A DNA stretch of 64,000 bases from Mayamaea pseudoterrestris (GCA_027923505.1 BROI01000022.1:1-64000), one strand, 5' to 3'; counted from the stretch's first letter, positions 1-64,000 are shown. Numbers and translations are program-made. The notes: generated from the sequence alone by a model not told the origin.

Positions 1-3000
1 ACAGCAGGCCATGTATACACCCAAATGACACCAGAATGGTGCCAACATCATTTTAGGCTGCGCTACAAGATGGTATGCCTGGCTGGTGTCTAAGGATGGC
101 AATGTATTTGGTGACAACTTGTCACCAGTCTCAGCCCGCAGATGCCTTGACATTCAAATGCCCCTACAGCAGGCCATGTATACACCCAAATGACACCAGA
201 ATGGCGCCAACATCATTATTTAGGCTGTGCTACAAGATGGTATGCCTGGCTGGTGTCTCAGGGGATGGCAATGTATTTGGTGACAACTTGTCACCAGTCT
301 CAGCCTGCAGATGCCTTGACATTCAAATGCCCCTACAGCAGGCCATGTATACACCCAAATGACACCAGAATGGTGCCAACATCATTATTTAGGCTGTGCT
401 ACAAGATGGTATGCCTGTCTGGTGTCTCAGGGAACGGCAATGTATTTGGTGACAACTTGTCACCAGTCGCCCCCGCAGATGCCTTGACATTCAAAATGCC
501 CCTACAGCAGGCCATGTATACACACCAAATGACACCAGAATGGTGCCAACATCATTATTCAGGCCGCGCTACAAGATGGTATGCCTGGCTGGTGTCTCAG
601 GGACTACAATGTATTTGGTGACAACTTGTCACCAGTCTCAGCTCGCAGATGCCTTGACATTCAAACGCCCCTACAGCAGGCCATGTATACACCCAAATGA
701 CACCAGAATGGTGCCAACATCATTATTCAGGCTGTGCTACAAGATGGTATGCCTGGCTGGTGTCTCAGGGAACGGCAATGTAATTGGTGACAACTTGTCA
801 CCAGTCTCAATCCGCAGATGCCTTGACATTCAAATGCCCCTACAGCAGGCCATGTATACACCCAAATGACACCAGAATGGTGCCAACATCATTATTTAGG
901 CTGCGCTACAAGATGGTATGCCTGGCTGGTGTCTCAGGGGACTGCAATGTATTTGGTGACAACTTGTCACCAGTCTCAGCCCGCAGATGCCTTGACATTC
1001 AAACGCCCCTACAGCAGGCCATGTATACACCCAAATGACACCAGAATGGTGCCAACATCATTATTCAGGCTGCGCTACAAGATGGTATGCCTGGCTGGTG
1101 TCCCAGGGGACTGCAATGTATTTGGTGACAACTTGTCACCAATCTCAGCCCGCAGATGCCTTGACATTCAAATGCCCCTACAGCAGGCCATGTATACACC
1201 CAAATGACACCAGAATGGTGCCAACATCATCATTCAGGCTGCGCTACAAGATGGTATGCCTGGCTGGTGTCTCAGGGGACTGCAATGTGTTTGGTGACAA
1301 CTTGTCACCAATCTCAGCCCGCAGATGGCAGGACATTCAAATGCCCCTACAGCAGGCCATGTATACACCCAAATGACACCAGAATGGTGCCAACATCATT
1401 ATTCAGGCTGCGCTACAAGATGGTATGCCTGGCTGGTGTCTCAGGGGACTGCAATGTATTTGGTGACAACTTGTCACCAATCTCAGCCCGCAGATGCCTT
1501 GACATTCAAATGCCCCTACAGCAGGCCATGTATACACCCAAATGACACCAGAATGGCGCCATCATGATTATTTAGGCTGTGCTACAAGATGGTATGCCTG
1601 GCTGGTGTCTCAGGGAACAGCAATGTATTTGGTGACAACTTGTCACCAGTCTCAGCCCGCAGATGCCTTGGCATTCAAATGCCCCTACAGCAGGCCATGT
1701 ATACACACAAATGACACCAGAATAATGCCAACATCATAATTTAGGCTGCGCTACAAGATGGTATGACTGTTTTTTGACTCAGGGGACTGCAATGTATTTG
1801 GTGACAACTTGTCACCAGTCTCAGCCCGCAGATGCCTTGACATTCAAATGCCCCTACAGCAGGCCATGTATACACCCAAATGACACCAGAAAGGTGTCAA
1901 CATCATTATTTAGGCTGTGCTACAAGATGGTATGCCTGGCTGGTATCTCAGGGAACGGCAATGTATTTGGTGACAACTTGTCACCAGCCTCAGCCCGCAG
2001 ATGCCTTGACATTCAAACGCCCCTACAGCAGGCCATGTATACACCCAAATGACACCAGAATGGTGCCAACATGATTATTCAGGCTGCGCTACAAGATGGT
2101 ATGCCTGGCTGGTGTCCCAGGGGACTGCAATGTATTTGGTGACAACTTGTCACCAATCTCAGCCCGCAGATGCCTTGACATTCAAATGCCCCTACAGCAG
2201 GCCATGTATACACCCAAATGACACCAGAATGGTGCCACCATCATTTTTCAGGCTGCGCTACAAGATGGTATGCCTGGCTGGTGTCTCAGGGGACGGTAAT
2301 ATATTTGGTGACAACTTGTCACCAATCTCAGCCCGCAGATGCCTTGACATTCAAATGCCCCTACAGCAGGCCATGTATACACCCAAATGACACCAGAATG
2401 GTGCCAACATGTTTATTTAGGCTGTGCTACAAGATGGTATGCCTGGCTGGTGTCTCAGGGAACGCCAATGTATTTGGTGACAACTTGTCACCAGTCTTAG
2501 CCCGCAGATGCCTTGACATTCAAATGCCCCTACAGCAGGCCATGTATACACCCAAATGACACCAGAATGGTGCCAACATCATTATTTGGGCTGCGCTACA
2601 AGATGGTATGCCTGGCTGGTGTCTCAGGGGACTGCAATGTATTTGGTTACAACTTGTCACCAGTCTCAGCCCGCAGATACCTTGACATTCAAATGCCCCT
2701 ACAGCAGGCCATGTATACACCCCAATGACACCAGAATGGTGCCATCATCATTATTCAGGCCGCGCTACAAGATGGTATGCCTGGTTGGTGTCTCAGGGGA
2801 TGGCAATGTATTTGGTGACAACTTGTCACCAGTCTCAGCCCGCAGATGCCTTAACATTCAAATGCCCCTACAGCAGGCCATGTATACACCCAAATGACAC
2901 AAGAGTGGTGCCAACATCATTATTTAGGCTGTGCTACAAGAATTTATGCCTGGCTGGTGTCTCAGGGGACTGCAATGTATTTGGTGACAACTTGTCACCA

Positions 3001-4212
3001 GTCTCAGCCCGCAGATGCCTTGACATTCAAATGCCCCTACAGCAGGCCATGTATACACCCAAATGACACAAGAGTGGTGCCAACATCATTATTTAGGCTG
3101 TGCTACAAGATGGTATGCCTGGCTGGTGTCTCAGGGGACTGCAATGTATTTGGTGACAACTTGTCACCAGTCTCAGCCCGCAGATGCCTTGACATTCAAA
3201 GGCCCCTACAGCAGGCCATGTATACACCCAAATGACACCAGAATGGTGCCAACATCATTATATAGGCTGCGCTAGTCAACATGATGGTATGCCTGGCTGG
3301 TGTCTCAGGGGACTGCAATGTATTTGGTGACAACTTGTCACCTGTCTCCTCCCGCAGATGCCTTGACATTCAAACGCCCCTACAGCAAGCCATGTAAACA
3401 CTGAAATGACACCAGAATGGTGCCAACATCATTATTTATGCTCTGCTACAAGATGGTATGCCTGGCTGGTGTCTCAGGGAATGGCAATGTATTTGGTGAC
3501 AACTTGTCACCAGTCTCAGCCCGCAGATGCCATGACTTTCAAACACCCCTACAGCAAGCCCTGTAGATTCCCAAAATACACCAGAATGGCGCCAACATAA
3601 TTATTCAGGTTGCGCTACAAGAAGGTAGGCTTGGTGGGTGTCTCAGGGGATGTCAATGTGACTGGTGAGAAGTTATCACCAGTCTCAGCCCGCAGATGCC
3701 ATGACATTCAAATGCCCCTACAGCAAGCCCTGTAGGTGCCCAAATTACACCAGAATGGTGCCAATGATTTTGGTAGGCCCATACCGTGACCAAATTTAGC
3801 CTGATTGGTGCCAGCAGCCTTTTTTCCAGTGCTCTACAAGATGCATTGTCTGGCTGGTCCCCTGGTAGACTGCAATGTGATTGGTGATATCTTGTCACCA
3901 GTCTCAGCCAGCAGATTCCATGATTTTCAAACACCCATACTAGAGTAATATGTATGCCCAAATCATGCCAGAATAGTGCTAACATCCTTATTGTAAGTCC
4001 GCTACAAGATGCTTTGCCTGACTAGTCCCTAGGTAGACTGCAATGGGATTGGTGACAACTTGTAACCAGTTTAAGCCAAAGGATGCAATGATTTTCAAAC
4101 ACCCATACCTAGAGCCATGTGTATGCCCTAATCATTCCAGAATGGTGCTTACATCCTTAATTCAGGTGCGCTACAAGATGCATTACCTGGCTGGGCCCTC
4201 AGTAGATGGCAA
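1..4212. repeat. Tandem satellite array A, 169-bp monomer, ~25 copies in window (continues past window start)
   Basis: Motif AAATGACACCAGAATGGTGCCAACATC recurs every 169 bp (equivalent ORF starts at 866, 1035, 1204). Copies are near-identical to ~3270, then progressively diverged. Confidence 0.98.
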
Positions 4213-4754
4213 TGCTGGGATCCCCGTTTTGGCCGACGAACAAAGCAACATTGAAAAGGACATCGACACGGTCTCAGCGGCACCAAGACACGGAAGATCC
4301 CGTTCACGACCACACTCCCACGACGGCGAGAGTAGAAAGTCAGCCACTGGCTCAAACCCTACACACTTCACCGTACCCGAAGAAGTCACGACTGACAACC
4401 GTAGAAAGACTACCACAAGCACATCGAATACTGGAACCGGCGTACACAGCGAATGTTTGGCCCCTACAGAGCGAAGCCGTGCAAACACTACCAGCAGTGA
4501 AGACTATACTGCCAATTCTGTAGACGGACGAGAGCCATCCCGCCTACGGGATGGCCAGTACAAAATGACACGACCGGTAGACAATATACATACGTATGAA
4601 TGAGAAGCCACTTTTGGATGCGAAATCGACCGCTTCACTTTCGTCTCATTCTAGAGGATCTACTAACAATAGATTCAAAGTTTCCCCAGTCTTTTAGCGT
4701 TTAAACCGTCTTTTCTCCCTACTCCACGCGGACCTTCATCTTGGATCTCAAGCA
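4213..4754 (+). repeat. 5' LTR of copia element 1 (542 bp)
   Basis: TGCTGGGATCCCC...GATCTCAAGCA, near-identical to 14513-15055. Confidence 0.96.
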
Positions 4755-4892
4755 AAGTAATTACTTGCCGATTGAACCAAGATCTTTTTACCAAGTTTCC
4801 AAAGCATTGAACAAAACCGGACGCGGATTTCTTCAAGCCCTTTCTGTCAACCTCGAATTTCCAACGCTCTGTAGCAACAAGCGGAGTATTGA

Positions 4893-6598
4893 GTGAGCAA
4901 GAGCAAGTCTACAAGCGACCCTTTTGCCTTTATCTTTCAGTTTACCTCGAGTCGGATCAAGCGTTTGATCAAGGCCAACGTTGTCGAGCAGATTTCAAGT
5001 CTCCATCAGTTGAGCAGAACTACTTTACCTAGTCTGCCCGCTTCTCCTCCTCCTCTTCTTTCTCAACCTGTTTCAATTACTGAACGGCCCAGTAATCCGT
5101 TCCCGCCCCCTAAAAAGCAGAAGCACATTCCACCGGCCAAAACCCGACAGCCTCGCCTTTCCACACCCCTACCGTCAAGCGAAGCCTTGCCAAAGACAAG
5201 CGTTTCGCCTGGATCTTTCGAGGCATTCTACCGCCGCCTTCATCAAAGCCAATCGACCCGGAACAAGTTTGTGAGCAGCGCTTCAATCAGTTTAAAGACC
5301 TTGCCAACAATGAAGTGTTTTACAGTCACATTGCGGAAGAATTCAAAGAAGAAGGATTAGCAAAAGTTGCCGAGTCAACCGCACAATCAGGCGTCGAAAC
5401 AAGTTACATCGACAGCAACGTACCCTTTCTCAAAGCCTTCATCTTTTCTCCAAAGTCATTAATCTTCCTTGACGAAAAGCGAGCAGACTTTTACAAGAGC
5501 CTTGATCTTTGCCGACCGAACAATCCTTTCACGCCCGAAGAGAAGGAGATTCTTCTACTAGAAGACACTTTGCGCAACGAGCGAGACGAATTCGAAGCAA
5601 AAGACCTATCGCATCCAGTAACTCTTTACTTCCTCAAGAAGACTCGTTTCCTGCTTCAAAAGGACGAAGAAATCAGACGTCAAGACTTGCAAAGACTTTC
5701 TGAAGTACCAGATATAAACACAGAGACGACGTGCGCTTGTTCTGTGTGCATCTGTTTGTAAACACACGCATCCCTCGCCAAGCAGCAACTCATCGCCAGT
5801 CAACGAGCAATTAGAGACATCGCCAACAAGCATGACGCATACTTGCCGATCAATCAATTCACTTCGCCAACAAGAAGCAAATAGCGCCAGTTAGACAAGC
5901 GCATCGACACGAGACCATAGCAACAAACTCTTCGCTCTCAACTTTCAAGCACTTACCAAGAAGCACCTCGCATCGCAACAGTTCAAAGCGTTGCAGACCG
6001 TCGTCAAGCACTTCTTCAACAACGAAACAGACAGCGACAAGCAAGTCAAGAGCGCGCATCAACAACGCAACAAGCTTCGATCAATCTTCAACGCAATCGA
6101 ATCACTGTTAGTCAAAGACGCAATCAACGTCGCAACGAAACGAACAGCAATCGTCCTTACCAACAGCGTTTAAGACAACAACAAGCGAATCGAAGCGTCA
6201 CGCCAACCCGACAGCAAAACCGAACCTCCAATCCAATCCTTCGAGTCCAGCCTCGCATCAACGACACGCGCAACACTACAACTCATCATACACGCGATAT
6301 AAACAGTCTTCAAGCTCAAGTAACTCGTTTAAATCATCTTCTTAATCAACAACAACGACAGCTGCACTTACAAGCTCAACGAAATCGACAAGTGACAAAT
6401 CAACAACGTGTCCATCGTCGCGATCAACACGCTCAGCAGTTCCACGCTCGTTCACGTTTTCAAACTCCGTCACATCAGCAACTCAATTGGCCACGTCAGC
6501 AACGTTTAGCTACCCCAAACCGTCAATCTTCATTCGCCGACAACAACGTTAGCTATCAACGTCCAACCAATAGCCAAAACTTTTACTACTCATTCTAA
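4893..6598 (+). pseudogene. Disrupted extra ORF (ORF0) upstream of gag in element 1, Q/R/N-rich C-terminal part
   Basis: ORF pieces 4893-5360 and 5315-5761. The latter frame is open again from 5921 to 6598 and ends 8 nt before the gag ATG. No recognisable domain. Confidence 0.45.
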
Positions 6599-6606
6599 TC
6601 GCAACC

Positions 6607-9359
6607 ATGACCGACCAACAAGAAGACATAACTATGAATGCGCTCTACAAAACGCCAAAGATAACCAATACCATCGAAGCCTTTCCATCATGGTTCAACC
6701 AGTTCAAGAATCATGCAAGAATTGCAGGCTGCCGCCGTCCTATAAGAGGCAGTCGACCCGAGCATTTACCAGCTACTCAACATGAAGTCATTACTGATCC
6801 CGCAGCGAACGCAACAGCAGACGAAATCCAAATCATTCGAAACCAACAAGCGGAACGCAAGCAGAATGAAACGCTCATGCAAATGCTTTCCATCGCATTG
6901 TCGCCATTCCCCGAGTTGAACGACCATCTTGTCGGAGCAGAATCAACAGAGTATCCAGGAGGCGAAGCTTGGAAGGTTATCAACGCATTGGAAATCAAGT
7001 TTTCTCCAGACAAGTTCATGGCGCCAACACTTTACCGACGAAGCATTCAAAATCTCAAGCTCGAACGACCAACTGCAAACCCTCAAGACCTCATCGACCT
7101 CATGCAATCGCAAGCCATCAAGTTCAACCAAACGCTTCTTGCAGAAGACCTGATGGCTACGCTCATGAACAAACTGCCGCCTCAATACTGCCTCGCTTTA
7201 GCACAAGAGCAAAAGACCAAGCAACGCGCCCTGACCAAGACCGAAATGGAGGGCGTCGTGTCGACCAGGACTGCAGCAGAATGAAGAAGCTTTACCCGCA
7301 AGGTGACAACGTTGTCTCATAGATGCGCGACCAAACCGCACAAGAAACTTCACGCCAACAAAACACTCGTCAGCATCAAGCGCCGCCAACTCGCAATGAA
7401 CGCCCACAAACCAACTATAACAACACGCGAAATCCGCCATCATTCAAATGCTACCTTTGCCATCAACCGTATCATCGAAGCGCCGACTGCTTTGAACGAG
7501 TCGAAAACGCCCATCGTCGGCCTCGCGGATGGAACACCCGTCTGTCAATTGAAGCTCGTCGTCAATTGGAAGATGAAGAAGCACGAGAGCAACAAGAGCG
7601 GGGTTTAGAACGACCAAGAGAGCGTCCTCGCAATTCAAATCGACATCAAGATCGTCGTCTTCCTCAAGATGATCAACAAGAAGACCGTCGATATCGCCAG
7701 AATCGCAACAACGAGCGCACAAGAGACCAACCAAGAGACAATGATTATCGTCGTCGAGATCATCAAGAGCAACCGCGTCAACTTGAGCATCAAAACCATC
7801 GTCAAGAGCCTCACCCGCGAACCATCATGCGCGAACAAGTGCCTCGTCAAGCGCCATTACTACTCGAACAAGGACTTGCAGCAGTACACGAAGCCCTTCA
7901 GTTGACTCAGCGATCGCATCGTTCCTCATCGCAACGTTCCTCTTCAAGCCGCCGTTATCCTTCTACAAACTCAAGGAGCGAATTTGCCTTCATACATGCC
8001 GACTTAGTTGACGAAACTTATCCAGCACTCCCTACTCGCACTCCTGCAGCTCCAACACCGTCGCCTTTATATCCACAAACCAATTGGCGTGGTCTACAGC
8101 CACATCAGATTAAAGACTATTCATCGGAAGATGATTCATCAATCGAGCAGCAACCAGCACCACCAACAACTCGAACGAAACGCACAAGAACAACGTCAAG
8201 CTCCACCAACAAGAAGCAAGCTGTCGAATTGGTGCCTTTAACAAAGTCGTCCGCAACGAGTGAGTCACCAAAGCCAAAGCCAAATCTTCCATCGTCAAAT
8301 CTTAATGGACGCAGTTGGGCATCCATATGCGGCGACCCAAGCACAAGTGATGATGAAGAAAGCGACTTTGAAGACGACTTCGTCAACAGCAAGACTCCAA
8401 CCGAGCAAGAACGGAAACACTTCAACACTTTAATTCAAAACATTGAAACACTTGAGCAAACGAAGCAAGAAGACGGGAAGGGTCTACCATTCCATGAACA
8501 AGACAAGCCAAGTAAATCAGAGCAACAAGTGCACTCATCAATTGAAGAGCAAGCAAACAATCTCAACGATCCCTACCACGGCTACGACGCTACGCAAAGC
8601 ACCAATAACGTCACAACGAGCAGCGACACAACTGAAACCACCAATCTTGAGCCAACAATCACAAACGCCAACGAATGCGACACACATGAGCGCACCGACA
8701 ACGTCACAACTTGCAGCGCTGATAAAGATTCAACTCCAACAACAAGTCCTCCAATTGAATTGAAAGAAGAAGAAAGTGTAGAAGAACTGGTAGCAACAAG
8801 CTTTGCGCAATGGCGAGGAGACTGGCTACCCAAAGACTTTCTTACAGCAGACGAACTAAAAGAAGTCGAGCACTTGTATCCAACCTTTGCTCCAAGAATT
8901 CCAAACAACATTCCACCACAAGCCAACTCGAGTGATCTACCGCCATTCCATGTCATGCAAAGCGTCCTGTTCATCAATCCTCCACTGTACGAGCTATCGG
9001 ACGCCGTAAAAGTGATGTTTGCAGATCTACAAGAATTCTTTCTCGAGCACATAGCCATGCCACACGCCTTTACGCATCAAGAAGCAATTGACTCAACGCG
9101 AGACCGCTACTACCAATACACTGGTCTTCGAGTCTGGGATACAGAGCGAGTCGAAATCATCATGAGCAATCCTGGCGACGAAGAAACCAATTCAGACGAC
9201 GCAACTTACGATTCAGATGCATACCCAAGCAGTCAAAGTTACGGATCAGACTCCTTCACATACGAAGGCTATCAAGCTTTTCTTCAAGCATGGGAGCACC
9301 GCAATCAAGCGCCTGAACATGTCGTCTCTCGGCAGACGAAACCACCATTGAGCAAATAA
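6607..9359 (+). pseudogene. gag: gag of copia element 1 with long C-terminal extension (frameshift near 7270-7320)
   Basis: Copia gag-like 'AFPSWFNQFKNHARIAGC'; CCHC knuckle CYLCHQPYHRSADC at 7449-7490. Confidence 0.8.
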
Positions 9360-9552
9360 AGAAGGGATGAGCAAGACATCGAAACAAACCCTGCAAAGCG
9401 CCCGCCGCCATGCTAGAACGTTTCAGCCAAAGGCGTTTCCTCAAGGATCTCATCTTCTGGTTCGAAGAAATCAATGAAGAAGACGAAGAAGCACTGTTTG
9501 ACGAACGTTTAAAAGTTGTCATCAATCATGCAATTGCCAAGGAGGTCAAAAG

Positions 9553-12500
9553 ATGAGCACTCGAAGGAACATTGCGAACCCGCAGCACCCTAGAAGAAGA
9601 CCTCCGCAACGTCGGCTTGGAATTCATCAAAGACTTAACGACTTTCAACTACCTCGATCAATTTCCAGAAAGCGAGAGAGAAGCAGAACGACAGGAACTA
9701 CTAGACCTCCTTGCAGAACGCTAGGCAAGAGACGCACGCGAAGCAGCAGAGCAACGTGCACGCAGATACCAGCCTCCAGCTCGCAATTCAAATCAACTGC
9801 AACACGAAAGCCCAAATCCATTCAATGCATTGAGAGCGCCAATGCCTACACACGAAAAACAACAACCCACAAGACCTCGCTCAACTCCATTACGGTAACC
9901 AACTTGGATATCTTGAAGCATCCTGAAATCTTCATCGGCGATACCGCAGCAACCGTCGACTGTACACCTCATCCAGAAGGCCTGTTCGATGCCCGTCAGA
10001 TACGAAATGAAGGCATCACAATGGGAAATCAAACAGTCGCAGACATTCAAACCATGGCGAAGCTGGCCGTCGCGATCGATTTGGCAATCCTCTCTACCAA
10101 GGAGTCCTCAACAACGTTGCTTACGCGCCCGACTGCGCCTTCAATCTGTTCAGCATCACTCAACGTTTAGCGACAGGATGGAACCTCCGCAGCGGCAACA
10201 AGAAGATTTGGCTAGAGAAAGAAAACCAACACTCCATCGTCTTCGACTTGCTGATTCCTACCAAGCGAGGTCATCTTTACTGCATGTACTTGAGACGAGT
10301 CATTCCAATGCCATTAGTTCAAGCGCCTCGTAACGAGTTCGCCATGATTGCAGCCAACTTGCTTCCGACACGCCGTCTCTCCTACAAACAAATGCACGAA
10401 CTGTGTGGACACCAAAGCCCCCAAATGACACTCGCAATTGCCAAACACTTCAAATGGGAAATACATGGATCGTCCAAGAACAAGTGTGTTGCCTGCGCAA
10501 TAGGCAAAGCCAAGAAACAACCGGTCCCTCAAATATCACCACGCATCCGAGCCACAGAACCAGGCGAGCGACTCTACATGGACCTTTCTTCATTCAGAGT
10601 CATGAAGAGCAAATCAGAACTTGGATTCTCCTCCATTCAACCGCAATGGCAACTCATTGTCGACGAAGCGACAGGCTACAAGCACAGCGCCATGTACCGC
10701 ACAAAAGGGGAAATCGTCGAGCCGACATGCCAGATGCTCTACTACCTCATCCAACGCGGCATTACAGTCAAATACCTTCGAATGGACAACACTGGAGAGA
10801 ACCAAGCACTAGCCAAATCAATGAAGAGCTCCGCTTGGAAATTGCCGATCGAAATTGAATGGACCGCAAGAGACACCCCGCAGCAGAACAGCCTTGTCGA
10901 AATTGGATTCCCGACGCTCAACAATCACACGCGAGCCATATTCACCGCTCAAAACATCATTTTCTCGTTTCATGGTCCTGGCACCGTGCCTCGAATACGG
11001 CAATCTGCTATCGCGACAATCGGCACTCTAGCGCAGACTTCGGATTCAAACACCTCTACGGGACCCAGTCGCCCATCAACAAGAAACTACATTCATACGG
11101 CGAAGCAGTCACTGTCCTGATATCCGGATTAAAGTCTCATCTAGCACCAAAAGAATTCCAAGGCATCTTTGTCGTACAGCAAAATCACCCGAGCAGATGC
11201 CGTGCGTCTTCAATCCCGAGACCAATCGCGTACATGACGTCAAGGACGTCACATTTCTTCACCGACCGTACTTTCAACCTAAGCCCCCGCGTCACGAAAT
11301 CGTCACTACACCACTCATTGACGTCATTTCCTGCAGCAGCAACTACAGCAGTCTTTTCTCACCGCATCACCATGGGAATCTGCCGCCGCCACCCGCGAAA
11401 TCTCCAGACGACAAGAACAAGAAGAAACCAACGTTCCACACTAAGCGCCTCCTGACACGATCTACCTCACTGATTGATCTGACTGACCATGACACTCCAG
11501 AGGCATCGGAAGTCTCACCAACAAACTCAATCCAATCAGCTCCCGACACCTTCAACCCAACTGCACTTACAATATTCCATCCAAATGCACATGCACCAAC
11601 AAATGCAGAAGAAGAAGTGGCAGACGCACCCAATACGCCTCAATCTCCAAGAGCGCATCCTACAATTGCTGATCGACAAGCGGACGCAATACAAAGACAC
11701 ATCGCTCGATTCTCATCAAACCACTCACGAGGATCACAAAGCTCAAGATCATCTACACGCTCCACCCGATCCAATCCTGGTGGCTTGCGTCGCACTACAC
11801 GAGAAACAAGAACACCAACTCGATTCGATCCGACCAATCCTGCAACATTCGCCGCTATACTCGCCGCACTCGACGAACGATTCGGCAATCGCACAACACT
11901 ATACAACGCATGCGACAACGGCTATGACAGTGACCGATCAGCTGAATCAGAATATGACAAGTACTGCGAGTCTGACGAGCAAGAATTCCACCGCCGACCA
12001 TATGACGACCAGCAAGACGAAGAATCAGTCTCATCGAACGGGTCCATACCTCCTCTGGTACCTCGAAATGACGACTACAGCAGCGCAGGTGACAGCGAAG
12101 CTCCTGAACTATGGGGCAACGAAGACAGTTTCTGTTTGCCTACACAAGATCAACGTTACGAAGCTGCCTACGAGCCATCACACGAGCGCAATGACGACTC
12201 CGTATCATTAAATGATTCCATACCCGACTTAGTCCCAAGAGCCGACGACCATAGCAGTGCAGGAGACAGTCAAGCAATCGAGCTGTGGGACATTAATGCA
12301 GACGACGATGAATATGAAGAAGAGCTCACCCAAGCAAATGGACGTCCCGCACCTCAACCAGCCGCACCTCAAGCGTCTATCGAAACAGTGATCACGACTC
12401 GAGTCTCCAATGTTTGCAGCCCGACTCTTCAACTCGGGAAGGGTTTCAACCCAGATGACCATGAAGATAAAACATCTATACTAGTCACCGAGACACAAGA

Positions 12501-13257
12501 CGAAAGCGACGAGTCGACAAACCAGCAAATCGATCTACCGCCAGAACAACTTGCCATCATGGCCGACCTCCTACACGTTCCCTCTTCAACGATTCTCGAC
12601 GACACACATACATCCGTCCATGATTCGCCATACCAACAAGAAAACGACCATGAAGATCAACAAAGCTTCCATAGCGCCGACTTGATCCCTGCAGAAATCC
12701 ATTTAAACCTCGACGAGACAAGCGAACCACCGAACGAGCCCACAAATTCCACCTTTGAATACTTCTTCCGCGACATGCCCAGCACGCCGTCTAGTGCAAG
12801 CATCTTCTACGACGCGTCTCCCATTCCCACACTCGGAGAGTTTGCGTGCGTTGGAGCGGGCATTGGAGGCGGATTCATCAACACAGAAGAGTTGCATACG
12901 ATCAAGTTCAAGCAAGCCATGGGCAGCCAAGCGTCCCGAATGGATCAAGGCAATTCACAAGAAGGACACTCATCAGCACTGCACAGTCCAAGTCGTGTCT
13001 CGCAGCATGATACCACCTCGAACAAAGTGCATGACAAGCAATTGGGTGCTCAAGAAGAAGTCAATTGGAACAGACAAAGCACGAATCACAGCAAGAGGCT
13101 ACGAACAAGAAGACGGAATCCATTACGACAGCAACAAGATCTCATCTCCAGTAGCATCGCCAACGTCCATCAAGATTGTCACAACTCTTGCCATCATGAT
13201 GGGATACGAGCCACACATCTTCGATATAAGCGGAGCCTTCCTCTACGGCACGTTTGA
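9553..13257 (+). pseudogene. pol: pol: aspartic protease, integrase and long acidic integrase C-terminal linker (several frameshifts)
   Basis: Protease-like IFIGDTAAT (~9930); HHCC motif HELCGH...CVACAIGK; core motifs LYMDLS, IVDEATGY, YLRMDNTGE, TPQQNSLVE. Confidence 0.85.
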
Positions 13258-14903: not shown

Positions 14904-15055
14904 GAAGCCACTCTTGGATGCGAAATCGACCGCTTCACTTTCGTCTCATTCTAGAGGATCTACTAACAATAGATTCAAAGTTTCCCCAGTCTTTTAGCGT
15001 TTAAACCGTCTTTTCTCCCTACTTCCGTACGGACCTTCATCTTGGATCTCAAGCA
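14513..15055 (+). repeat. 3' LTR of copia element 1 (543 bp)
   Basis: Matches the 5' LTR except for two isolated substitutions and one clustered change near 15024-15030. Confidence 0.96.
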
Positions 15056-15120
15056 GGCAATGGGATTGGTGAGAACTTGTCACCAGTCTCAGCCAGCGGA
15101 TGTCAGGGTTTCCAAATGCA
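15056..15120. repeat. Terminal remnant of satellite A
   Basis: GGCAATGGGATTGGTGAGAACTTGTCACCAGTCTCAGCC continues the monomer interrupted at 4212. Confidence 0.85.
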
Positions 15121-15362
15121 CTTTCACCATGTTTTTACTTATTCCAGCCTGGTTGATGGATATCAATCCATATTTGTATCAACAGTATGTGCAGGAAAGA
15201 AGGCCAGCCAAGAGCTTTGGTGGTTCAAAGCTTACTGCTCGCGCACGCTTTGGAATACTAGCAACTACAAAGAGTCCACTACTGGTAAACATTCATTGGC
15301 TGAAAAGAGCGAGCCACAGCCTTCACGCATGCGATGCATGGAATCAAAGTTTTACAGTAGCC

Positions 15363-20418: not shown

Positions 20419-20736
20419 GCCTGCTAGTAATTATCGAGATGATTGATGAATAGTCTAAAGTCTTTGCTTCATTAACTGTAAGAGCAACTCTCCATCGTCG
20501 AGTTGCCGGAAAGTGGTCGTTGATTGCGCGATGATGGCTGATCGAGCCGTTAAGATACCTTCCGATGTCGCTGCGACAAAAGCTGACAAAATTTTTGATT
20601 CTACATCGCACCGGTTTTGGCCGGTGACCAAGAAAAATCATCGTTCCATTTTCGACGCGAAGACAGCGTCAATGCTTCACAAACAAGCACTGTTCAACGC
20701 ACTCGAGAGAAAAGAACACGTTATAAGTGATTAAGG

Positions 20737-22134: not shown

Positions 22135-22270
22135 TCGGCGGCAGCATTTCATATACTGCTTTGCCAGAGCCTTGCATGCTCATCACTCTTGTGCACGGGA
22201 GCAAATAATTTCGTCTGCCGCTACAGTCTTCCTCGCCTTGTAGCAGCAGACGCGATTCTTATTGCCCCCA

Positions 22271-54309: not shown

Positions 54310-55240
54310 AGTCGCAGAACTAGGAGACTAGGTACTCGTAAAGATGAATGCATTACACTTTCAACATAATGAATCAATGCTTGTCATCTGCCAGCCTTGA
54401 ATGTACACAGAAATTGGCCATTAGAGTGGGTCATAGGGGCATGACATAAAGGCAGTCTCTGTCACAGAACATGGGGACTAGATGGGCTTGCAATTACTGC
54501 ATTGCACTTTCTACATCATGAAACAATGCCTGTCAACTGCCAGCTATCAATTGATACCTCTCTAGTGTTTGGAGTGGGTTTTGTCAGCCTACTTTTGTGG
54601 ACAAGCTTAGGGACTAGGAATTCTGGCAGTCCCTGTCTCAGAACATAGAGACTCGATGGGCTGGCAATGACTGCATTGCGCTTCCTATATCATGACACAA
54701 CACCTGTCAACTGCCAGCTATCAATTGATATTACTCTGGCATTTGCAGTGGGTCATGGCAGCCAGCTACTGGGGACAAGCCTAGGGACAAGAAATTTGGG
54801 CAGTCCCTGCCGCAGAACTTGGAGACTAGATGGGCAATTGATGACTGCATTGCACTTTCTATTTCATGAAACAATGTCTATCAACTGCCAGCTATCAATT
54901 GATACCTCTCTGGCTGTTGGAATGGGTCATGGCAGCCAGCTACTGTGGACAAGCCTAGGGACACAAATTTCTGGCAGTCCCTGTCGCAGAACTTGGAGAC
55001 TAGATGGGTAATAGATGACTGCATTGCACTTACTATTTCATGAAATAATGCCTGTCAACTGCAGGTATCAATTTATACCTCTCTGGCTGTTGGAGTGGGT
55101 TATGGCAGCCAGCTACTGGGGACAAGCCTAGGGACGCGATATTCTGGCAGTCCCTGTCACAGAACATGGAGACTAAATGGGCAATTGATGACTGCACTGC
55201 ACATTCAACATCTGGAAGCAATGCCTGTTAACTGCCATCT
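54310..55240. repeat. Tandem satellite array B, ~174-bp monomer (left part)
   Basis: AT(G/T)ACTGCA(T/C)TGC recurs at 54493, 54667, 54841, 55015, 55188; first monomer degenerate. Confidence 0.95.
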
Positions 55241-55552
55241 TGTAACTTGTAAATCAAATCGTTGCACCTTTCGCTTGTAGCTGTCCTTGGATGGCCAATC
55301 CAAGCTTGCAGTTGCTACAATACGAGAGACGAATAAATCGCTTTCTTAACTCTTCAAGCTTAGTAAGTCTGCTTGTTTCTACTCTATATCGCACTAGTTT
55401 CAGCAATATACTTGTTGAATCGCTTCGAAGCCGTCGCTGCCACGCATCACGCGATCGTGAGGCTGTGGTGAGCCGCGAGTGCCGCTGTGTCACCCTATCG
55501 GACATTCGGTGTGACTTGCCCGATTTTCGCTGTTTTCGTTCGCATCCTGCAA
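55241..55552 (-). repeat. 3' LTR of element 2
   Basis: Same as 62093-62404; preceded (element sense) by PPT GAGGGGAG at 55553-55560. Confidence 0.95.
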
Positions 55553-55569
55553 CTCCCCTCAAGTCATAC

Positions 55570-57428
55570 CTAATAGTTAGATTCCTTGAAGAGCAGGTTC
55601 TTTAAGTGCTTGCTTGCCGTAGCCCGTGGAAGAAACTTGGTAAGTACATCCGCCGGGTTTGTCGTTCCCATGATGTGGTTGAAATTAATAATTCCCGCCG
55701 CAATCGCTTCGCGTACACGGTGAAATGCCAGTGCATTGTGTCGCTTCGTCAGACTAGAGTGCGGTAGGTTGCTGCTTTGCGTTACCGACTTGTTGTCTCC
55801 AAACATCCATGAAGGTCCGTCGAGCGGAACTCCCAACATGCGTAGCGTGAAGCGAAGATCCATGATCTGCTCCGTGCTCACTCTCGCTGCTACAAACTCC
55901 GAGCCGTACGTCGCCGTCTCGACCGTCGCTTGGCGTTTCGAAAACCAATCAACGACTGTTCCATTCAACATGTGTAGCATGCCCATCGCTGCCCGTCCCG
56001 TCGTGTAATCGTGGTACAGGTTCGCATCTTCGAACGTTGACATTCGCACCGCCTTGCCGCGCGGCGTGGGCATGTTCCACGGAAGCTCTTCGCAGATCTT
56101 GCCGTACACACTGTAATCCCAATCCATCTTGTCAACTGTCGCGTATCGCTCGTCCGTTGGAATCGAAACGTTGAATCGAATCGCTCCATCCGGGTATCTT
56201 CGTAAGTATCCGCAAATATGCTTCAACCGTTCCAAGTGCCCCGCTCGTGGCGCAGCTCGGAATCTCCCCATAGTCATGACAGCACAGTGAATGTCGAATC
56301 GACATAAACTTACTGCCCATTGCAACGCACCAATTATCGATTGATACTTCGCAATTCCGTCGTCGTCAAGTTCTTTCGTTTCGTCGAGTTCCGGATGATC
56401 GCCGTCGCGTAGTGGACTTGTCCGCGGTCGCGGTTCCTCGCCGAACATTTCTTTGTAGTTCGCTAGTAGTCTTGTGACGTACTTCTTCGCTCCGAAGCAG
56501 AGTACGCCGTCGTCGTCTCGCCAAACGTCTGCGCCCAAATGATATGCCAATGGACCGACGCCCTTCAACTTGTAGTTGTAGTTCTCAATTAAAAGATCCG
56601 TTAGTTCCTTCGATTCTTCATCGCTATCGCTAAATCGTCGACATACACACAAACGTATTCGTAGTGCGTGCCTTTATCGCGCATCCACACGTCCGGTTCT
56701 GCGATACACGGCATGAAGCCAATGTCGCGGAGCGTGTCTGCAAAGTGCTCGTGCCAGCGTGCGCCTGACGTGCGAAGACCGTATAATGCCTTCACGATCG
56801 TGAGCGTGTGACCCTCGAGCTCCCCGAACTCCGGACCTGCCACGATATAAACCTTCTCTTTCGTTTTCGCTTCCAAGTATGCGTTGCCGACGTCAGCTGC
56901 CCACAGTTCCAGACCGTTGAGTTCCGCTAACATCGCTACCATTCGTAGACTTCGCAATGACACAACGCCCGAGTAAACTGAATCCTTCGGCGGCTCTGTC
57001 ATATGTCCTCCTGCAACGAGTCGTGCTTTCCGTCGCAAATCGTGCTTGACATCGAATATCATGTGCACGTTTATTCGTTTCCACGGCGCCGGCATAACCT
57101 TACCGACTCCTTGATCTGCGAACGTGTCGTAATCATTTATCTGATTTAATTCCGTTCGAATCGCATCCGTCCACAGCGTGTTGCCGTTGATCTCGTCGAG
57201 AGCTTTCGCATCTTTATAATTGCGCAGCAACCTTACGCCGAATTTGTAGCGTACGCCGTTTGCTTTCGATTTTCGTTTCGCCGCTGTTACCATCTGTCGA
57301 AACTTCTTTCGCTTCCGAGTGTAATGCTCCAGCTGCTTCCATCCTGGCTTGTCGAGTAAGCCGTGCTTGAGTCCATACTCTGCGATCGTTATCGGATCGT
57401 CCTTCTTCATGATCGCGAGAGGCTCCAC
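55570..57428 (-). pseudogene. pol: pol RT and RNase H of element 2 (one frameshift near 56605)
   Basis: RKARLVAGGH, ADVGNAYL, KALYGL, EPDVW, YVDDL, ATVETATYGSEF, LTKRHN, ADVLTK. Confidence 0.92.
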
Positions 57429-57452
57429 GTCGTCGTTCCGTCAGTCCATTCG

Positions 57453-58645
57453 ACGAGAACGTTACTTGAACTTCCTTTGTATGTCGGATCGTTCGGTTTC
57501 AAATTAAGCTCGTGTCCGATTACCTTCGTGAATACCCACTGAGTCGCCGGATCGTTTCGTATATCTTCGTCCATCTGTCGTTCGATTAAATCCGACAGTT
57601 CGTTGTAACTTATTAAGTCTTTCGCTGGCTCTCTCCCATTTGGATTAGGAAACCTTTCGTCGTTTCGAGTAGCTCGTTATCGCGTACTTCGATATATTCG
57701 CATACAGTCGCTCGCATTTTCTGACCGTTTTCGTGTTCCCTTACGAACGTGCGTCCGATGAGTTCGCTTGGAGAGAACAGAGGGCATTTATTCCCTGATT
57801 CTTGCTCAGCCCTTCTGAAGAACTTCGCTGGTACGTTGGCGTGGTTCGCCATCGGAATTGTTTCTGTCGTCGTTTCCTTCGTAGTTGTCGTGACTACTTT
57901 CTGTCACATGCGTGCTATGGTAGCGTCCTGTCGCGAGATCTGGAGTTTCAAATTTCGCTCGCTTGCGCGTGTAGCTTCTTCAGAAATCTCCCTCCAGACT
58001 CAGGGAAGGGAAGGCAACTCGTGGTAACAAGTAGCTGCGCGAGACCACGCTACGAGAACGTTACTTGAACTTCCTTTGTATGTCGGATCGTTCGGTTTCA
58101 AATTAGCTCGTGTCCGATTACCTTCGTGAATACCCACTGAGTCGCCGGATCGTTTCGTATATCTTCGTCCATCTGTCGTTTCGATTAAATCCGACAGTTC
58201 GTTGTAACTTATTAAGTCTTTCGCTGGCTCCTCCCATTTGGATTAGGAAACCTTTCGTCGTTTACGGTAGCTCGTTATCGCGTACTTCGATATATTCTCG
58301 CATACAGTCGCTCGCATTTTCTGACCGTTTTCGTGTTCCCTTACGAACGTGCGTCCGATGAGTTCGCTTGGAGAGAACAGGGGCATTTATTCCCTGATTC
58401 TTGCTCAGCCCTTCTGAAGAACTTCGCTGGTACGTTGGCGTGGTTCGCCATCGGTTGTTTCGTCGTCGTTTCCTTCGTAGTTGTCGTGACTACTTTCTGT
58501 CCATGCGTGCTATGGTAGCGTCCTGTCGCGAGATCTGGAGTTTCGAAATTTCGCTCGCTTGCGCGTGTAGCTTCTTCAGAAATCTCCCCTCCAGACTCAG
58601 GGAAGGAAGGCAACTCGTGGTAACAAGTAGCTGCGCGAGACCACG
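57453..58645. repeat. ~595-bp tandem duplication inside the element 2 integrase C-terminal region
   Basis: ACGAGAACGTTACTTGAAC...GCGAGACCACG occurs at 57453-58049 and 58052-58645; copies differ mostly by 1-bp indels. Confidence 0.9.
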
Positions 58646-59421
58646 TTGGAGCGCGGAATCGCCTGAAGCGTGTCGTCCGTCAGACCGAGGAAAAGTCATG
58701 TGCGGACCGCTATTCTCTGCGATGCCCACGAATCGGCCGTTGCCAGATCGTACCGCCGAGGGAAAGCTCCCCTGCGCCTCAAACGTGACCGGTTCCCACC
58801 ACTTGAAATGTAACAAAGGCGAAATATCCGGCAGATTTCCGAACGCAACTTCCGTTGGCGTGCGCCATCCCAGCGATTTCGTCGCGAGGACGTTCAGTAT
58901 CATGATTACGAATTTAATCAGCAAAACCCAGCAATGGCCTGGCGAACCAGAATCTCGTTGGAGGTTCTCCATCATTGGCTTAATGTGCGACGTGTGACGT
59001 TCGCATGGATTTTGTTCTGGATGACCCGGTTCTGTGGTCACTGAGGAATATTGTACATCCGACAGAGATCCTCGCAGCCTTGCCAGTCTCCGACTTGGCA
59101 TTGTCGCTGAGCAGTCCGTTAGGAGCGCCCACTTCGCGGATAAAATCCTCTAACGCGTTTGACATTTCGCTCTCCGACTTCATCGGGTAGCCGCGCGTGT
59201 AAAACTTTCTCGTCCAACAAGAGCTGCATCTTAGTAGCTCCCCACGCCCTAAATTCCATCATCCAAAGCTGGCGTGTCAGAGTGTATCGTGTCCGTGGCG
59301 AATAGTTCACGCAACCGCTGAACGTTCGCGCCCGGAAATCGTGATTTCGTGGTGTCGAAATGGTAATCGCGGGTGTGCGCTGAGATGATACCATGCTTCC
59401 GTGTGACAAAGTCTGTTGCAA
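58490..59421 (-). pseudogene. pol: Integrase core of element 2 (multiple frameshifts)
   Basis: ALEDFIREVGAPNGLLSDNAKSE, TEPGHPEQNPCER, SLGWRTPTE...PDISPLLHF.WWEPV, GRFVGIAENSG. Confidence 0.85.
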
Positions 59422-59755
59422 CGCTCAGTCGGGACCCATCCGGAGGTACGGCCGAAGAGCATTATAGTCCGGTTCCTTGCTTCTTAGCTTCCGCAAATTA
59501 ACCGTGGAAAACTGAGCGTGTCGCACGCACCGATTGATCAGTACGTCAAGTTCGTCGCCAGTGCGTGTCGGCGTGTGACGATTGCGGTGCGTGATACCGT
59601 CATCATCGAATCGTTCGTCGAAAGATCCATAATCTGATCTCGTTCGTCGAAATCGTCGTGCGCGTGCTCGACATCGTAAACAGTCGGGTCCCACGGCACG
59701 TCCGACGTCATGATGACAGTCGGATACTTATCCAAATCATCGAACGTGGGTTTCG

Positions 59756-61942
59756 TCACGTCCAAGTACACCAGGCCATCGCGAATTGCCAATGGCAAAA
59801 CGTAGCCTCAATGTTCGTCGTAATTCGTTGCGTTCCGCCAAACATGGTCGGAATATCGTCGACGCGATGTCCCATTGCGCGCAATTGATTCGGGCAATGA
59901 ATCGTCGGTCCGTCTCGCTTTAAAGCATACTGGTGACACAGAAGCAGAATGGTTTCGCCACTAAGGGTCTTTGCCAGTCCAGCTGCAGTGCCAATCTTGA
60001 GAGCTGGGACAATATGATCGTCTATACCAGTCACATCCACCTCGGCGTTCGTTTCCGAAACGACGAGCATGTCTCCTCCGCATAAGCCTCCGTTCGCGCC
60101 GCTGTCGATGAGCGCGCCTTCGTTGATCCGCTCGTAGTGTGCGCGATTGACGCGCATACGACGATGCATGTTGAAGCTGAATGTACCTCGTCCGGTGTTA
60201 TCAGTCGTCAACGATCCTGTCACTTGCTGAGTTGTAGTACTCGCATTGTTCGCTTGCAGAACCGATCGTGCAGCCGTTTGGACTGACATTCCACTATTGC
60301 CGGGCTGAATATTAATCGTGCCAGGAACGCTTGCGTGATCGTTCGCTACAGATTCCGTCGCGTGACGCTCTTGATGCGCCGCGTTGACTTGCGTCTGCGT
60401 CGTAGCCGTGCCTCGTTGGTTGCGCGGTCGCCATCCGTTTTCGGGTGTCTTGGGCGCCGTCGCACGCTTGTCCTTCAACTGCTTTCGCTGATCAAACTTC
60501 ATCTCCAACCAGACTTCATCCTTCACGCTCGCGTGAGGTTTCTTCATGATCGCTGCAAATCGTTCCGCCGATAAGCCGCTTGGAGTCGCGCCGCCATTGC
60601 CGCCGCCGCCTCCTTTCGTTCCACTAGACTGCGCTTGATTGATTGTGCGCTTAGTCTTCGTCGTCGATGGGTGTTTCTTGTCATACTTGATGCAGCACTC
60701 TTCTAAGTGCGCGTACAACTGCGCGAAATTGTCTTCCGAGTCGTGTTGCCCCATGTGTTTCTTGATGGCAATCATTCCGTCAAAACCTGCTAGTGATGCG
60801 CTGAATCCTGTGTGCTCGGAGAAAGCGTCGCGTAGCATGTCGTATCGTTGTAAACCTGTCAGAGCTTCTGCGTCCATTTCGAGCAGCCAGATGACTTTCT
60901 TGTAGAACAGTGCGAGAAATTCGATCGTCGGCCGTGACCACTTCTCGGTCAGCCGCATTCCCTGCAGTTCCGTTCGCGCGCGTTCCTTCTCGATGTGAGC
61001 AGTAGCGCCTTCTTCGTATCGCGTTCGCAATCGTTGGTAGACTTCGCGTCCGTCCATCGTCTTCTTGAACTGCTGTACTGCGAGTGATGCAGACGGAGTT
61101 CGACAGTGCGTGAGAAAGATCCTGTATACAAACACATTCTTCTTTGCATACGCCTTCTGTTCTTTCGGTCCCTTTTCCTTCGGGTCATAATCGTCGTCAA
61201 AGACTTCGTGGAAGTCATGCAATGTAGCGATGACTTTCAACTCGGAAATCCACTGTTTCCACGAGGAATCCAGCTTCATTTCTTTACAATCCTTCGCCGA
61301 GAACTTGATAGACTTCGTAAATTGGTCTGAATACTTCTCGTCGTCTTCGTCGTCGCCGAGGTCCAGTACGGATGTTGGTGACTGCTTCGTGTCCACGTCC
61401 ACACTCGTCGGTGGCACCTTGTCGGCCGAGTCAGGCTTCGACTCGTCGCCTTCGTTCGTTAGCGTGGAGTCCTTGGATTCGTCCTTCTTGGATTCCGTTT
61501 CGCTTTCCTTCGCTGGAGGTTTCGCTCCGCTTCCGCTGCCCACGCTCGCAATGTTGCGCGCTTGGACTCGTTCCTTCGCTCGTGCTGTGACGAACGTCGC
61601 CAGCGTTTCGGTGGTCAGTTGCGACCATGTCTTGATGTCCGGCGACTCTTGCGCCAAATACCATTCGATCGCGTTCGTGATCGTGCGTTGTTTCATCTTC
61701 GTTAGCGAGTGTTCGCTCGTTTCCTGCGTGACATTGTCGCCATCGTCAGTCGTCGTCGTTGTCGTCGTCGTGACGTTCCACTTCGTCGCGAAATCGTCGT
61801 ACTCCATCTCAATCAGTTGCGTAAGCGATTCTACTCCGAGTTCGTCAAATAACTCCTTGAACTGAGGATCTTGGAAAACGCCTACGTTCTCTTCGTAAAC
61901 ATGCGCAAACGCCGCGTCTTTCTGCGCGCGAGTTTCCGCCAT
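59756..61942 (-). CDS. gag: gag-protease of element 2
   Basis: Long ORF with gag-like region (WKQWISEL...DGREVYQRL) and protease ALIDSGANGG. Confidence 0.85.
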   Translation of the reverse strand: MAETRAQKDAAFAHVYEENVGVFQDPQFKELFDELGVESLTQLIEMEYDDFATKWNVTTTTTTTTDDGDNVTQETSEHSLTKMKQRTITNAIEWYLAQESPDIKTWSQLTTETLATFVTARAKERVQARNIASVGSGSGAKPPAKESETESKKDESKDSTLTNEGDESKPDSADKVPPTSVDVDTKQSPTSVLDLGDDEDDEKYSDQFTKSIKFSAKDCKEMKLDSSWKQWISELKVIATLHDFHEVFDDDYDPKEKGPKEQKAYAKKNVFVYRIFLTHCRTPSASLAVQQFKKTMDGREVYQRLRTRYEEGATAHIEKERARTELQGMRLTEKWSRPTIEFLALFYKKVIWLLEMDAEALTGLQRYDMLRDAFSEHTGFSASLAGFDGMIAIKKHMGQHDSEDNFAQLYAHLEECCIKYDKKHPSTTKTKRTINQAQSSGTKGGGGGNGGATPSGLSAERFAAIMKKPHASVKDEVWLEMKFDQRKQLKDKRATAPKTPENGWRPRNQRGTATTQTQVNAAHQERHATESVANDHASVPGTINIQPGNSGMSVQTAARSVLQANNASTTTQQVTGSLTTDNTGRGTFSFNMHRRMRVNRAHYERINEGALIDSGANGGLCGGDMLVVSETNAEVDVTGIDDHIVPALKIGTAAGLAKTLSGETILLLCHQYALKRDGPTIHCPNQLRAMGHRVDDIPTMFGGTQRITTNIEATFCHWQFAMAWCTWT

Positions 61943-62092
61943 CGTTGTCGTCGTGACAATGTTCTTGCTATCACCTGCGGAACTTTCCGGGCCAAGAACC
62001 AACGTGCGTCCACGTTACTTCGTAAATCAATAGTACTCTTCGTCGATAAAGTCTCTATGCCGAGGCAATGAGTCTCAAGACAGTGTTAATCT

Positions 62093-62404
62093 TGTAACTT
62101 GTAAATCAAATCGTTGCACCTTTCGCTTGTAGCTGTCCTTGGATGGCCAATCCAAGCTTGCAGTTGCTACAATACGAGAGACGAATAAATCGCTTTCTTA
62201 ACTCTTCAAGCTTAGTAAGTCTGCTTGTTTCTACTCTATATCGCACTAGTTTCAGCAATATACTTGTTGAATCGCTTCGAAGCCGTCGCTGCCACGCATC
62301 ACGCGATCGTGAGGCTGTGGTGAGCCGCGAGTGCCGCTGTGTCACCCTATCGGACATTCGGTGTGACTTGCCCGATTTTCGCTGTTTTCGTTCGCATCCT
62401 GCAA
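62093..62404 (-). repeat. 5' LTR of element 2
   Basis: Same as 55241-55552. Confidence 0.95.
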
Positions 62405-64000
62405 CATCTATGAGTTTACACCCCTCTGGCTGTGTGAGTGGGTTTTGTCAGCCTGCTACTGGGGACAAGCCAAGGGGCACAAAATATTGGTAGACCCTGT
62501 CACAGAACTTGGAGCCTAGATGGGCTAGCAATGACTGCATTGCACTTTCTACATCATGAAACAATGCCTGCCAACTGCAAGCTATCAATTGATACCTCTC
62601 TGGCTGTGGGAGTGGGATATGGCAGCCAGCTACCGGTACTGGGGATAAGCCAGGAACACTAAATTCTGGCAGTCCCTGTCACAGATTTTGGTGAGTAGAT
62701 GGGCCATCAATCACTGCATTGCACTTTCTACATCATGACACAATTTCTATCATTTGCCATTTATTTGTTTACATCTCTCTGGATGTTGGAGTGGGTCATA
62801 GCAGGCAGCTACTATGAGCAAGCCTGGGGGCACGAAATTTGGGCAGTCCCTGTCGCAGAACTCGGAGACTAGATGGGCAATTGATGACTGCATTGCACTT
62901 TCTACATCATCAAACAATGCCTGTCAACTGCCAGCTATCACTTGATACCTCTCTGGTGTTTGGAGTGGGTTTCGTCAGCCTACTATTGTGGACAAGCTTA
63001 GGGACTAGGAATTCTGGCAGTCCCTGTCTCAGAACATAGAGACTCGATGGGCTGGCAATTACTGCATTGCGCTTCCTATATCATGACACAACACCTGTCA
63101 ACTGCCAGCTATCAATTGATATTACTCTGGCGTTTGCAGTGGGTCATGTCAGCCAGCTACTGGGGACAAGCCTACGGACAAGAAATTAGGGCAGTCCCTG
63201 TCGCAGAACTTGGAGACTAGATGGTCAATTGATGACTGCATTGCACTTTCTATTTCATGAAACAATGTCTATCAACTGCCAGCTATCAATTGATACCTCT
63301 CTGGCTGTTGGAGTCAGTCATGGCAGCCAGCTACTGGGGACAAGCCTACTGGCACGAAATTCTGGCAGTCCCTGTCGCAGAACTTGGAGACTAGATGGGC
63401 AATTGATGACTGCATTGCACTTACTATTTCATGAAACAGTGCCTGTCAACTGCAGGTATCAATTGATACCTCTCTGGCATTTGGAGTGGGTCATGGCAGC
63501 CAGCTACTGGGGACAAGCCAAGGAGCAAGAAATTTGGGCAGTCCCTGTCTCAGAACATGGAAACTAGATGGGCTGGCAATGACTGCATTGCGCTTTCTAT
63601 ATCATGACACAACACTTGTCAACTGCCAGCTATCAATTGATACCACTCTGACGTTTGGAGTGGGTCATGACAGCCTGCTACTGTGGACAAGCCTAGGGAC
63701 TCAATATTCTGGCAGTCCCTGTCACAGAACATGGAGACTAGATGGCCAATTAATGACTGCATTGCACATTCAACATCTGGAAGCAATGCCTGTCAACTGC
63801 CATCTATGAGTTTACACCCCTCTGGCTGTGTGAGTGGGTTTTGTCAGCCTGCTACTGTGGACAAGCCAAGGGGCACAAAATTTTGGTAGACCCTGTCGCA
63901 GAACTTGGAGCCTAGATGGGCTAGCAATGACTGCATTGCACTTTCTACATCATGAAACAATGCCTGCCAACTGCAAGCTATCAATTGATACCTCTCTGGC
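62405..64000. repeat. Satellite array B continued (runs past window end)
   Basis: Monomer starts at 62531, 62710, 62884, 63058, 63232, 63406, 63579, 63753, 63927. Confidence 0.96.

Follow-up and report, generated by a model that had tools for sequence, protein, structure and literature searches.

Young Ty1/copia retrotransposons within two unrelated satellite arrays bordering a gene island of the diatom Mayamaea pseudoterrestris

A 64,000-bp stretch of DNA from the freshwater diatom Mayamaea pseudoterrestris (BROI01000022.1, positions 1-64,000; hereafter the window) holds a compact block of genes between two unrelated satellite arrays, array A with a 169-bp monomer and array B with a 174-bp monomer, and each array carries one recently inserted Ty1/copia retrotransposon (E1 in array A and E2 in array B) bounded by long terminal repeats (LTRs) and target-site duplications (TSDs). 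The reading that we prefer, with a probability of roughly 0.55, is that ordinary non-coding satellite blocks flank a compact euchromatic gene block and that the two copia elements have been retained in these blocks as in a safe haven. The alternatives weighed below are an active preference of the elements for satellite DNA, a centromeric role for the 169-bp repeat, and a subtelomeric or artefactual origin of the arrangement.

Two unrelated satellite arrays

The arrays were delimited with Tandem Repeats Finder (TRF) and their borders refined by aligning each consensus monomer to the window with BLAST, which gave the following parts (none with an assigned strand):

1-4212: array A, 169-bp satellite, found by TRF and by BLAST of the monomer consensus; extends past the start of the window
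15056-15102: array A remnant of 47 bp, equal to consensus positions 98-144 and including the right copy of the E1 TSD (15056-15060)
54311-55240: left part of array B, 174-bp satellite; its last five bases, CATCT, are the left E2 TSD
62405-64000: right part of array B, beginning with the right TSD CATCT and in register with the left part; extends past the end of the window
954-972: one example of the 19-bp dyad of array A, from motif count and monomer alignment

TRF describes array A as a 169-bp period with 22.3 copies and 92% matches over 1-3764, and array B as a 174-bp period at 54451-55237 (83% matches) and 62420-64000 (78% matches). The monomers lie head-to-tail, about 25 of them in array A and about 14.5 in array B, and both arrays leave the window. 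The two consensus monomers share no similarity beyond 8-nt words in BLAST at E = 1, so that A and B are unrelated satellite families, and BLAST relates neither of them to E1 or E2. Rfam and tRNA scans of the window returned no matches and the satellites are thus not derived from a known RNA gene. Their GC content (46-49%) is close to that of the gene island (48.9%).

Within array A, BLAST places the 22 monomers of the core (1-3554) at 92.5-98.2% identity to the consensus and the degenerate edge monomers (3555-4212) at only 74-85%, while the monomers of array B are 75-89% identical to their own consensus. A homogeneous core with decayed edges is what unequal exchange and gene conversion would be expected to leave behind, and array A would represent a very abundant and recently homogenised family and array B an older, more diverged one. 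No higher-order periodicity was found among 18 monomers of array A. Its edge is irregular in two places, with one 174-bp monomer (3212-3385) and an interruption of some 35 bp that follows position 3764 (3764-3800), at which 250 contigs of a public DNA run (X1, see below) run on into canonical monomer sequence.

The monomer of array A also holds a perfect dyad of 19 bp with 9-bp arms, TGGTGACAA-C-TTGTCACCA, which is intact in 19 of the approximately 25 monomers. When 23 monomers are aligned, decayed ones included, no other stretch is as well conserved. A palindrome of array B, TATCAATTGATA, occurs in 9 of about 14.5 monomers and was dropped as a candidate box because it is not the best-conserved part of its monomer. 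DNA folding of one monomer per array was no better than that of shuffled sequences (z = -0.41 for A and +0.30 for B). A 20-mer from array A had no exact match in a scan of metagenome contigs; a 16-mer from array B did match exactly at 118 metagenome loci, a number attributable to chance, and neither consensus monomer matches those loci (BLAST, E <= 1e-3).

One recent copia insertion in each array

Both elements were delimited from LTR to LTR, and the internal features of E1 and E2 are given below (E1 on the plus strand and E2 on the minus strand throughout):

4208-4212, plus: left E1 TSD, GGCAA, repeated to the right of the element at 15056-15060
4213-15055, plus: E1, Ty1/copia, 10,843 bp, TSD-flanked
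4213-4754, plus: E1 5' LTR, 542 bp, TG..CA
4755-14512, plus: E1 internal region, with several frame changes and a purine tract, AAGGGAAGGG, ending at 14512
about 6574-7500, plus: E1 gag with CCHC knuckle, from translations read by eye
about 9900-10040, plus: E1 protease, from translations read by eye
10107-10958, plus: E1 integrase, upstream of the reverse transcriptase (RT) and followed by a long low-complexity linker
12838-14489, plus: E1 RT/RNase H
14513-15055, plus: E1 3' LTR, 543 bp
55241-62404, minus: E2, Ty1/copia, 7,164 bp, TSD-flanked
about 55241-55553 and about 62093-62404, minus: E2 LTRs, about 313-317 bp
55573-56610, minus: E2 RT C-terminus/RNase H
56613-57425, minus: E2 RT
57453-58645, minus: E2 tandem duplication (about 600 bp, 97% identity), with the integrase region on one side and RT on the other
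59810-61942, minus: E2 gag/protease

To the left of E1 the satellite stops at monomer position 104 and to the right it picks up at about position 98 (BLAST), and with GGCAA on both sides these in-register flanks identify E1 as a clean insertion in the last, degenerate monomer of array A, beyond which only about 47 bp of satellite remain. E2 carries CATCT on both sides, and array B resumes in register past it, with a start-to-start spacing of 7343 (7169 + 174). The E1 LTRs match at 538 of 541 aligned bases and those of E2 are 100% identical, and both insertions are therefore recent. Purine tracts precede both 3' LTRs.

By their domain matches and domain order, E1 and E2 are Ty1/copia elements. 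The Pfam model RVT_2 (cut-off 31.6) matches E1 at 39.6 bits (E = 5.7e-10) and E2 at 76.7 bits (E = 2.8e-21), and neither element matched the Pfam rve model. A copia polyprotein of 1456 aa, taken from an environmental assembly, matches the integrase region of E1 with its residues 379-643 (32% identity, E = 2e-42), and in tblastn its gag, protease, integrase, RT and RNase H parts fall on E1 one after the other in this order; a 1965-aa relative (P0242) is likewise colinear on E2. For E1, the zinc-finger and catalytic residues of the integrase, the CCHC knuckle and the protease motif are our by-eye reading of the translations and not the result of a tool. A sequence search of PDB with three large open reading frames (ORFs) of the elements returned nothing useful. 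E1 and E2 share no nucleotide similarity (BLAST) and only 22% identity in RNase H, and so belong to different copia lineages, which bears out the original prediction that each array is colonised by a different copia element. The same prediction described both as full-length elements inside satellite; this holds for their LTR-to-LTR extent, their TSDs and the in-register flanks. It fails if full-length is taken to mean intact, as the frames of both are broken and E2 bears an internal duplication. The coding sequence of E1 is spread over frames 1, 2 and 3 and that of E2 shifts frame several times, leaving no intact gag-pol frame in either, and some of these breaks could stem from assembly indels.

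Several further features of E1 were observed. Between integrase core and RT (11300-13200) it is longer than its relative P0124 by about 430 acidic residues of low complexity, in which a motif of about 30 residues occurs twice, and it has another long extension after the gag zinc knuckle; its length of 10.8 kb compares with polyproteins of about 1,450-1,590 aa in relatives. The plus strand of its internal region (4755-14512) is T-poor (T 18-20%, A+C about 60%), so that long stop-free frames are expected by chance and several of its ORFs need not be coding. The many long ORFs of E1, which owe their length partly to this composition, were accordingly not accepted as genes and were counted only where they aligned to copia proteins. 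In the DNA run X1 the E1 family has a depth of 400-1,800 against about 110 (about 4-16 times single-copy), with variant letters in all covering contigs at many sites, from which it follows that E1 belongs to a small multi-copy family. Contigs of two RNA runs (X3 and X4, see below) lie over the leader (4335-6335), where they reach a depth of about 7-13 and have loose ends at 5038, 5193 and 5591; neither run covers the central part (7003-11004). Transcription seems to come from variant copies whose sequence upstream of 5193 is not that of the window copy.

As for E2, its internal duplication is present though its LTRs are identical. An annotated M. pseudoterrestris protein of 1602 aa agrees with the ends of the E2 pol (within 55573-60958) at 100% and 99.7% identity, but residues 385-984 of this protein reach only 53-69% identity to E2, in shifting frames. 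The mismatch suggests that the copy is chimeric or that the gene model passes over frameshifts.

Abundance of the 169-bp repeat

Public contigs from four runs were mapped to 20 kb of the window (3001-23000). Two of the runs, from two studies, are DNA-like, and the other two can be recognised as RNA because their contigs skip two kinesin introns:

X1, DNA: 64,439 of 555,133 contig records on 3001-23000 (11.6%)
X2, DNA: 12,961 of 182,933 contig records on 3001-23000 (7.1%)
X3, RNA: 85 of 63,006 contig records on 3001-23000 (0.13%)
X4, RNA: 50 of 54,812 contig records on 3001-23000 (0.09%)

The DNA records fall almost entirely on array A. In its bin 3001-3667 the summed depth reaches 3.5 million in X1 and 438,000 in X2, and in gene bins about 95-190 and 24-46, respectively, which places array A at approximately 10^4 times the single-copy genes in both DNA runs, as summed contig depth and not as copy number. 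Even after an order of magnitude is removed, this depth points to thousands of 169-bp monomers. Given the share of DNA contigs and the summed depth that fall on array A, the 169-bp repeat probably forms a major satellite of the genome as a whole and not merely a local array of 4 kb. The summed depth of the RNA runs on the satellite of array A (35.8 and 7.75) could be explained by trace DNA, given the excess of the repeat in DNA.

The gene island and the source of the sequence

The original prediction of a dense gene block between the two arrays, with no LTR element recognisable among the genes, is confirmed:

15363-54155, both strands: gene island with at least 20 long ORFs

Of the 39,208 bp between the arrays (15103-54310), 25,217 bp (64%) fall in 20 ORFs with a length of 200 aa or more. 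In this interval BLAST of both monomers found no satellite copy, and no copia remnants occur in the gene island, the tblastn queries with copia polyproteins matching E1 and E2 only. Pfam names among the island ORFs include RING, kinesin, DnaJ/CCCH, cyclophilin, ankyrin, MsrA, XPG nuclease and CHY/RING, and a glycosyltransferase gene is also present. The genes beside array A are transcribed, as can be seen from RNA contigs covering 15585-16194 in two RNA runs and from kinesin contigs of two runs in which the introns at 17280-17348 and 17821-17894 are spliced out. A DNA contig at single-copy depth (15074-15614, 2 differences) bridges the satellite remnant and the gene flank; among the matches listed for 3001-23000 there were no LTR/satellite junction contigs and no empty-site alleles.

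That the sequence comes from a diatom, as first proposed, agrees with the matches of E2 given above and with MsrA (48562-49353), which is 95% identical, without gaps, to all 265 residues of an M. pseudoterrestris protein. These matches point to M. pseudoterrestris itself or to a form very near to it. An identity of only 95% in MsrA stands beside pol ends of E2 that are 100% and 99.7% identical to an annotated protein of the same species, and the window may represent a divergent haplotype or a sister strain of M. pseudoterrestris. The genome paper gives 30.6 Mb in 41 Nanopore contigs, with 2.97% heterozygosity and 19% repeats, mainly Ty1/copia (PMC9724779). Its Table S3 enters 0 bp under satellites and 2.26 Mb under unclassified repeats (PMC9724779), so that, as far as this table goes, the satellites are new for the species, in line with the original prediction.

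Retention in satellite or targeting of satellite

We infer retention from what surrounds the elements. Insertions into gene space would be purged by selection and gene-free satellite would tolerate them, and with at least 64% of the neighbouring DNA consisting of long ORFs, retention is the simplest reason for finding both elements in satellite. The two unrelated lineages would then each have made one recent insertion that survived where it did no harm to genes. Any heterochromatic state of the arrays would be a further assumption of this reading.

Four points weigh against it. Both insertions in the window lie in satellite and both empty sites share the 9-mer TAGATGGCA, which could mean active targeting. 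The conserved dyad of array A hints at a candidate protein-bound site and so at a function beyond that of junk DNA. The abundance values are sums over contigs, inflated by overlapping short contigs, and not copy numbers. They also refer to array A only, within 3001-23000.

The first of these points leads to the alternative that both copia lineages actively target satellite, their integrases being tethered to a satellite-bound factor or to a sequence motif, so that placement reflects a preference at integration. Satellite makes up 14.8% of the non-element DNA of the window, and under uniform insertion the chance that both elements fall in it is 0.022; this chance rises, however, to 0.107 if only non-ORF DNA is permissive. 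Both reconstructed empty sites (4203-4212 and 55233-55240/62405-62412) hold TAGATGGCA in the orientation of the element, with the TSDs (GGCAA and AGATG) 4 nt apart on it, and all four occurrences of the 8-mer AGATGGCA in the 64 kb lie in satellite. The residues by which E1 exceeds P0124 between integrase core and RT may also be counted in favour of targeting. Against it, the sample comprises just two insertions and the motif was noticed post hoc, which makes it a lead and not a result. Pfam found no Chromo domain at E <= 1 in 20 ORFs of E1 and E2, nor does PF00385 appear in the precomputed Pfam lists of the 120 best-listed longer relatives of each element. Moreover, with RNase H as dissimilar as it is between E1 and E2, a shared specificity would require convergence or mediation by the host. 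Taken together, we regard active targeting as quite unlikely and retention in gene-free satellite as the better account.

Centromere, subtelomere or assembly artefact

A different alternative casts the 169-bp satellite as the centromeric repeat of the diatom: the left end of the window would be the margin of a regional centromere built on satellite, array B would be a pericentromeric relic and the copia elements would be associated with the centromere. Array A is very abundant and appears recently homogenised, its monomer is of nucleosome length, and its conserved 19-bp dyad could be a protein box. Centromeres associated with retrotransposons occur in other stramenopiles, namely with the copia-like CoLT in Phytophthora sojae (PMC7082073) and with ECR-1 in Ectocarpus (PMC11541908). 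Nor does the window contain a low-GC block of the Phaeodactylum type: 100-bp windows of <=32% GC do not cluster over about 1-3 kb anywhere in the 64 kb but form only six intergenic patches, each of at most about 170 bp, and the lowest GC content over 1 kb is 43.9%. On the other hand, the centromeres of Phaeodactylum and those predicted for Fistulifera are described as short, low in GC and free of highly repeated elements (10.1101/2021.11.10.468027), satellite abundance alone is compatible with any heterochromatin, expressed genes begin about 260 bp past the array remnant, and the array A monomer folds no better than its shuffles (z = -0.41). A centromeric role of the repeat thus seems rather unlikely to us. 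The more specific proposal, in which Mayamaea has the first satellite-based centromere of a diatom, made up of the 169-bp repeat, with the dyad as a box for a kinetochore or satellite protein and with diatom copia lineages integrating beside it at a TAGATGGCA-like site, is very unlikely.

The arrays might instead be subtelomeric satellite blocks, for which the repeat of about 98 bp in Ectocarpus offers a stramenopile precedent (PMC11541908), or the satellite might have been mis-joined to the gene block during assembly, the published genome being a Nanopore assembly (PMC9724779) and satellites being prone to mis-assembly. The window, however, has no dimer of the telomere repeat TTAGGG on either strand, and with 3 and 5 copies the hexamers are rarer than chance would predict. 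Mis-joins would not produce exact TSDs and satellite that stays in phase across both elements, and the bridge between satellite remnant and gene flank comes from an independent short-read contig at single-copy depth. We consider both origins highly improbable, and retention of the elements in ordinary satellite blocks remains our preferred explanation.

Significance and comparison with known systems

Descriptions of diatom genomes usually present them as poor in satellites, and, to our knowledge, every diatom centromere characterised so far is a short sequence of low GC content. In the literature searched (titles and beginnings of abstracts), we found no description of a diatom satellite or of a satellite-based diatom centromere. 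Should a sizeable part of the DNA sequenced from this ~30-Mb genome consist of the 169-bp repeat, assembly and k-mer estimates of genome size probably understate the genome, diatom heterochromatin would have an unstudied component, and raphid pennates outside Phaeodactylum would gain a concrete candidate to examine for centromere function. Should it prove just local or modest in amount, the window would be an ordinary case of retrotransposons surviving in gene-free DNA.

Diatom copia-like retrotransposons go by the name of CoDi. E1 and E2 resemble them in having a divergent Ty1/copia pol in which Pfam sees little beyond RVT_2 (CoDi as mentioned in PMC11541908). Relatives of both elements are abundant in environmental assemblies. 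E1 differs from CoDi in being about twice the usual length, at 10.8 kb, and the likeness is one of such features.

The CoLT regions of Phytophthora sojae reportedly extend over 211-356 kb. With CoLT our elements share their stramenopile host, their Ty1/copia type, near-identical LTRs, frameshifts (present in many CoLT copies) and a gene-poor repeat setting, whereas CoLT clusters in transposon-rich regions bound by CENP-A, for which the part of the paper at hand describes no satellite, and E1 and E2 are single elements in tandem arrays (PMC7082073). Phaeodactylum tricornutum and Fistulifera solaris are, like Mayamaea, raphid pennate diatoms. Their centromeres (those of F. solaris being predicted) measure 1.4-2 kb, have 36-42% GC or lower and are without highly repeated elements (Diner et al., 2017, as cited in 10.1101/2021.11.10.468027), in contrast to the arrays described here, which have 46-49% GC.

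Plant and animal centromeric satellites, such as alpha satellite and CentC with its CR elements, are alike in their nucleosome-length monomer, homogenised core and LTR-element insertions; in those systems the elements are chromoviruses of the Ty3/gypsy type, whereas those of Mayamaea are Ty1/copia elements free of a recognisable chromodomain (PMC3648361). The satellites dispersed over the euchromatic arms of Tribolium castaneum likewise have monomers of about 170 bp, belong to more than one family and form short to medium arrays beside genes (PMC4675708). Set against that beetle, the arrangement in Mayamaea occurs in a compact diatom genome of about 30 Mb, and array A seemingly has a copy number far above that of one local array.

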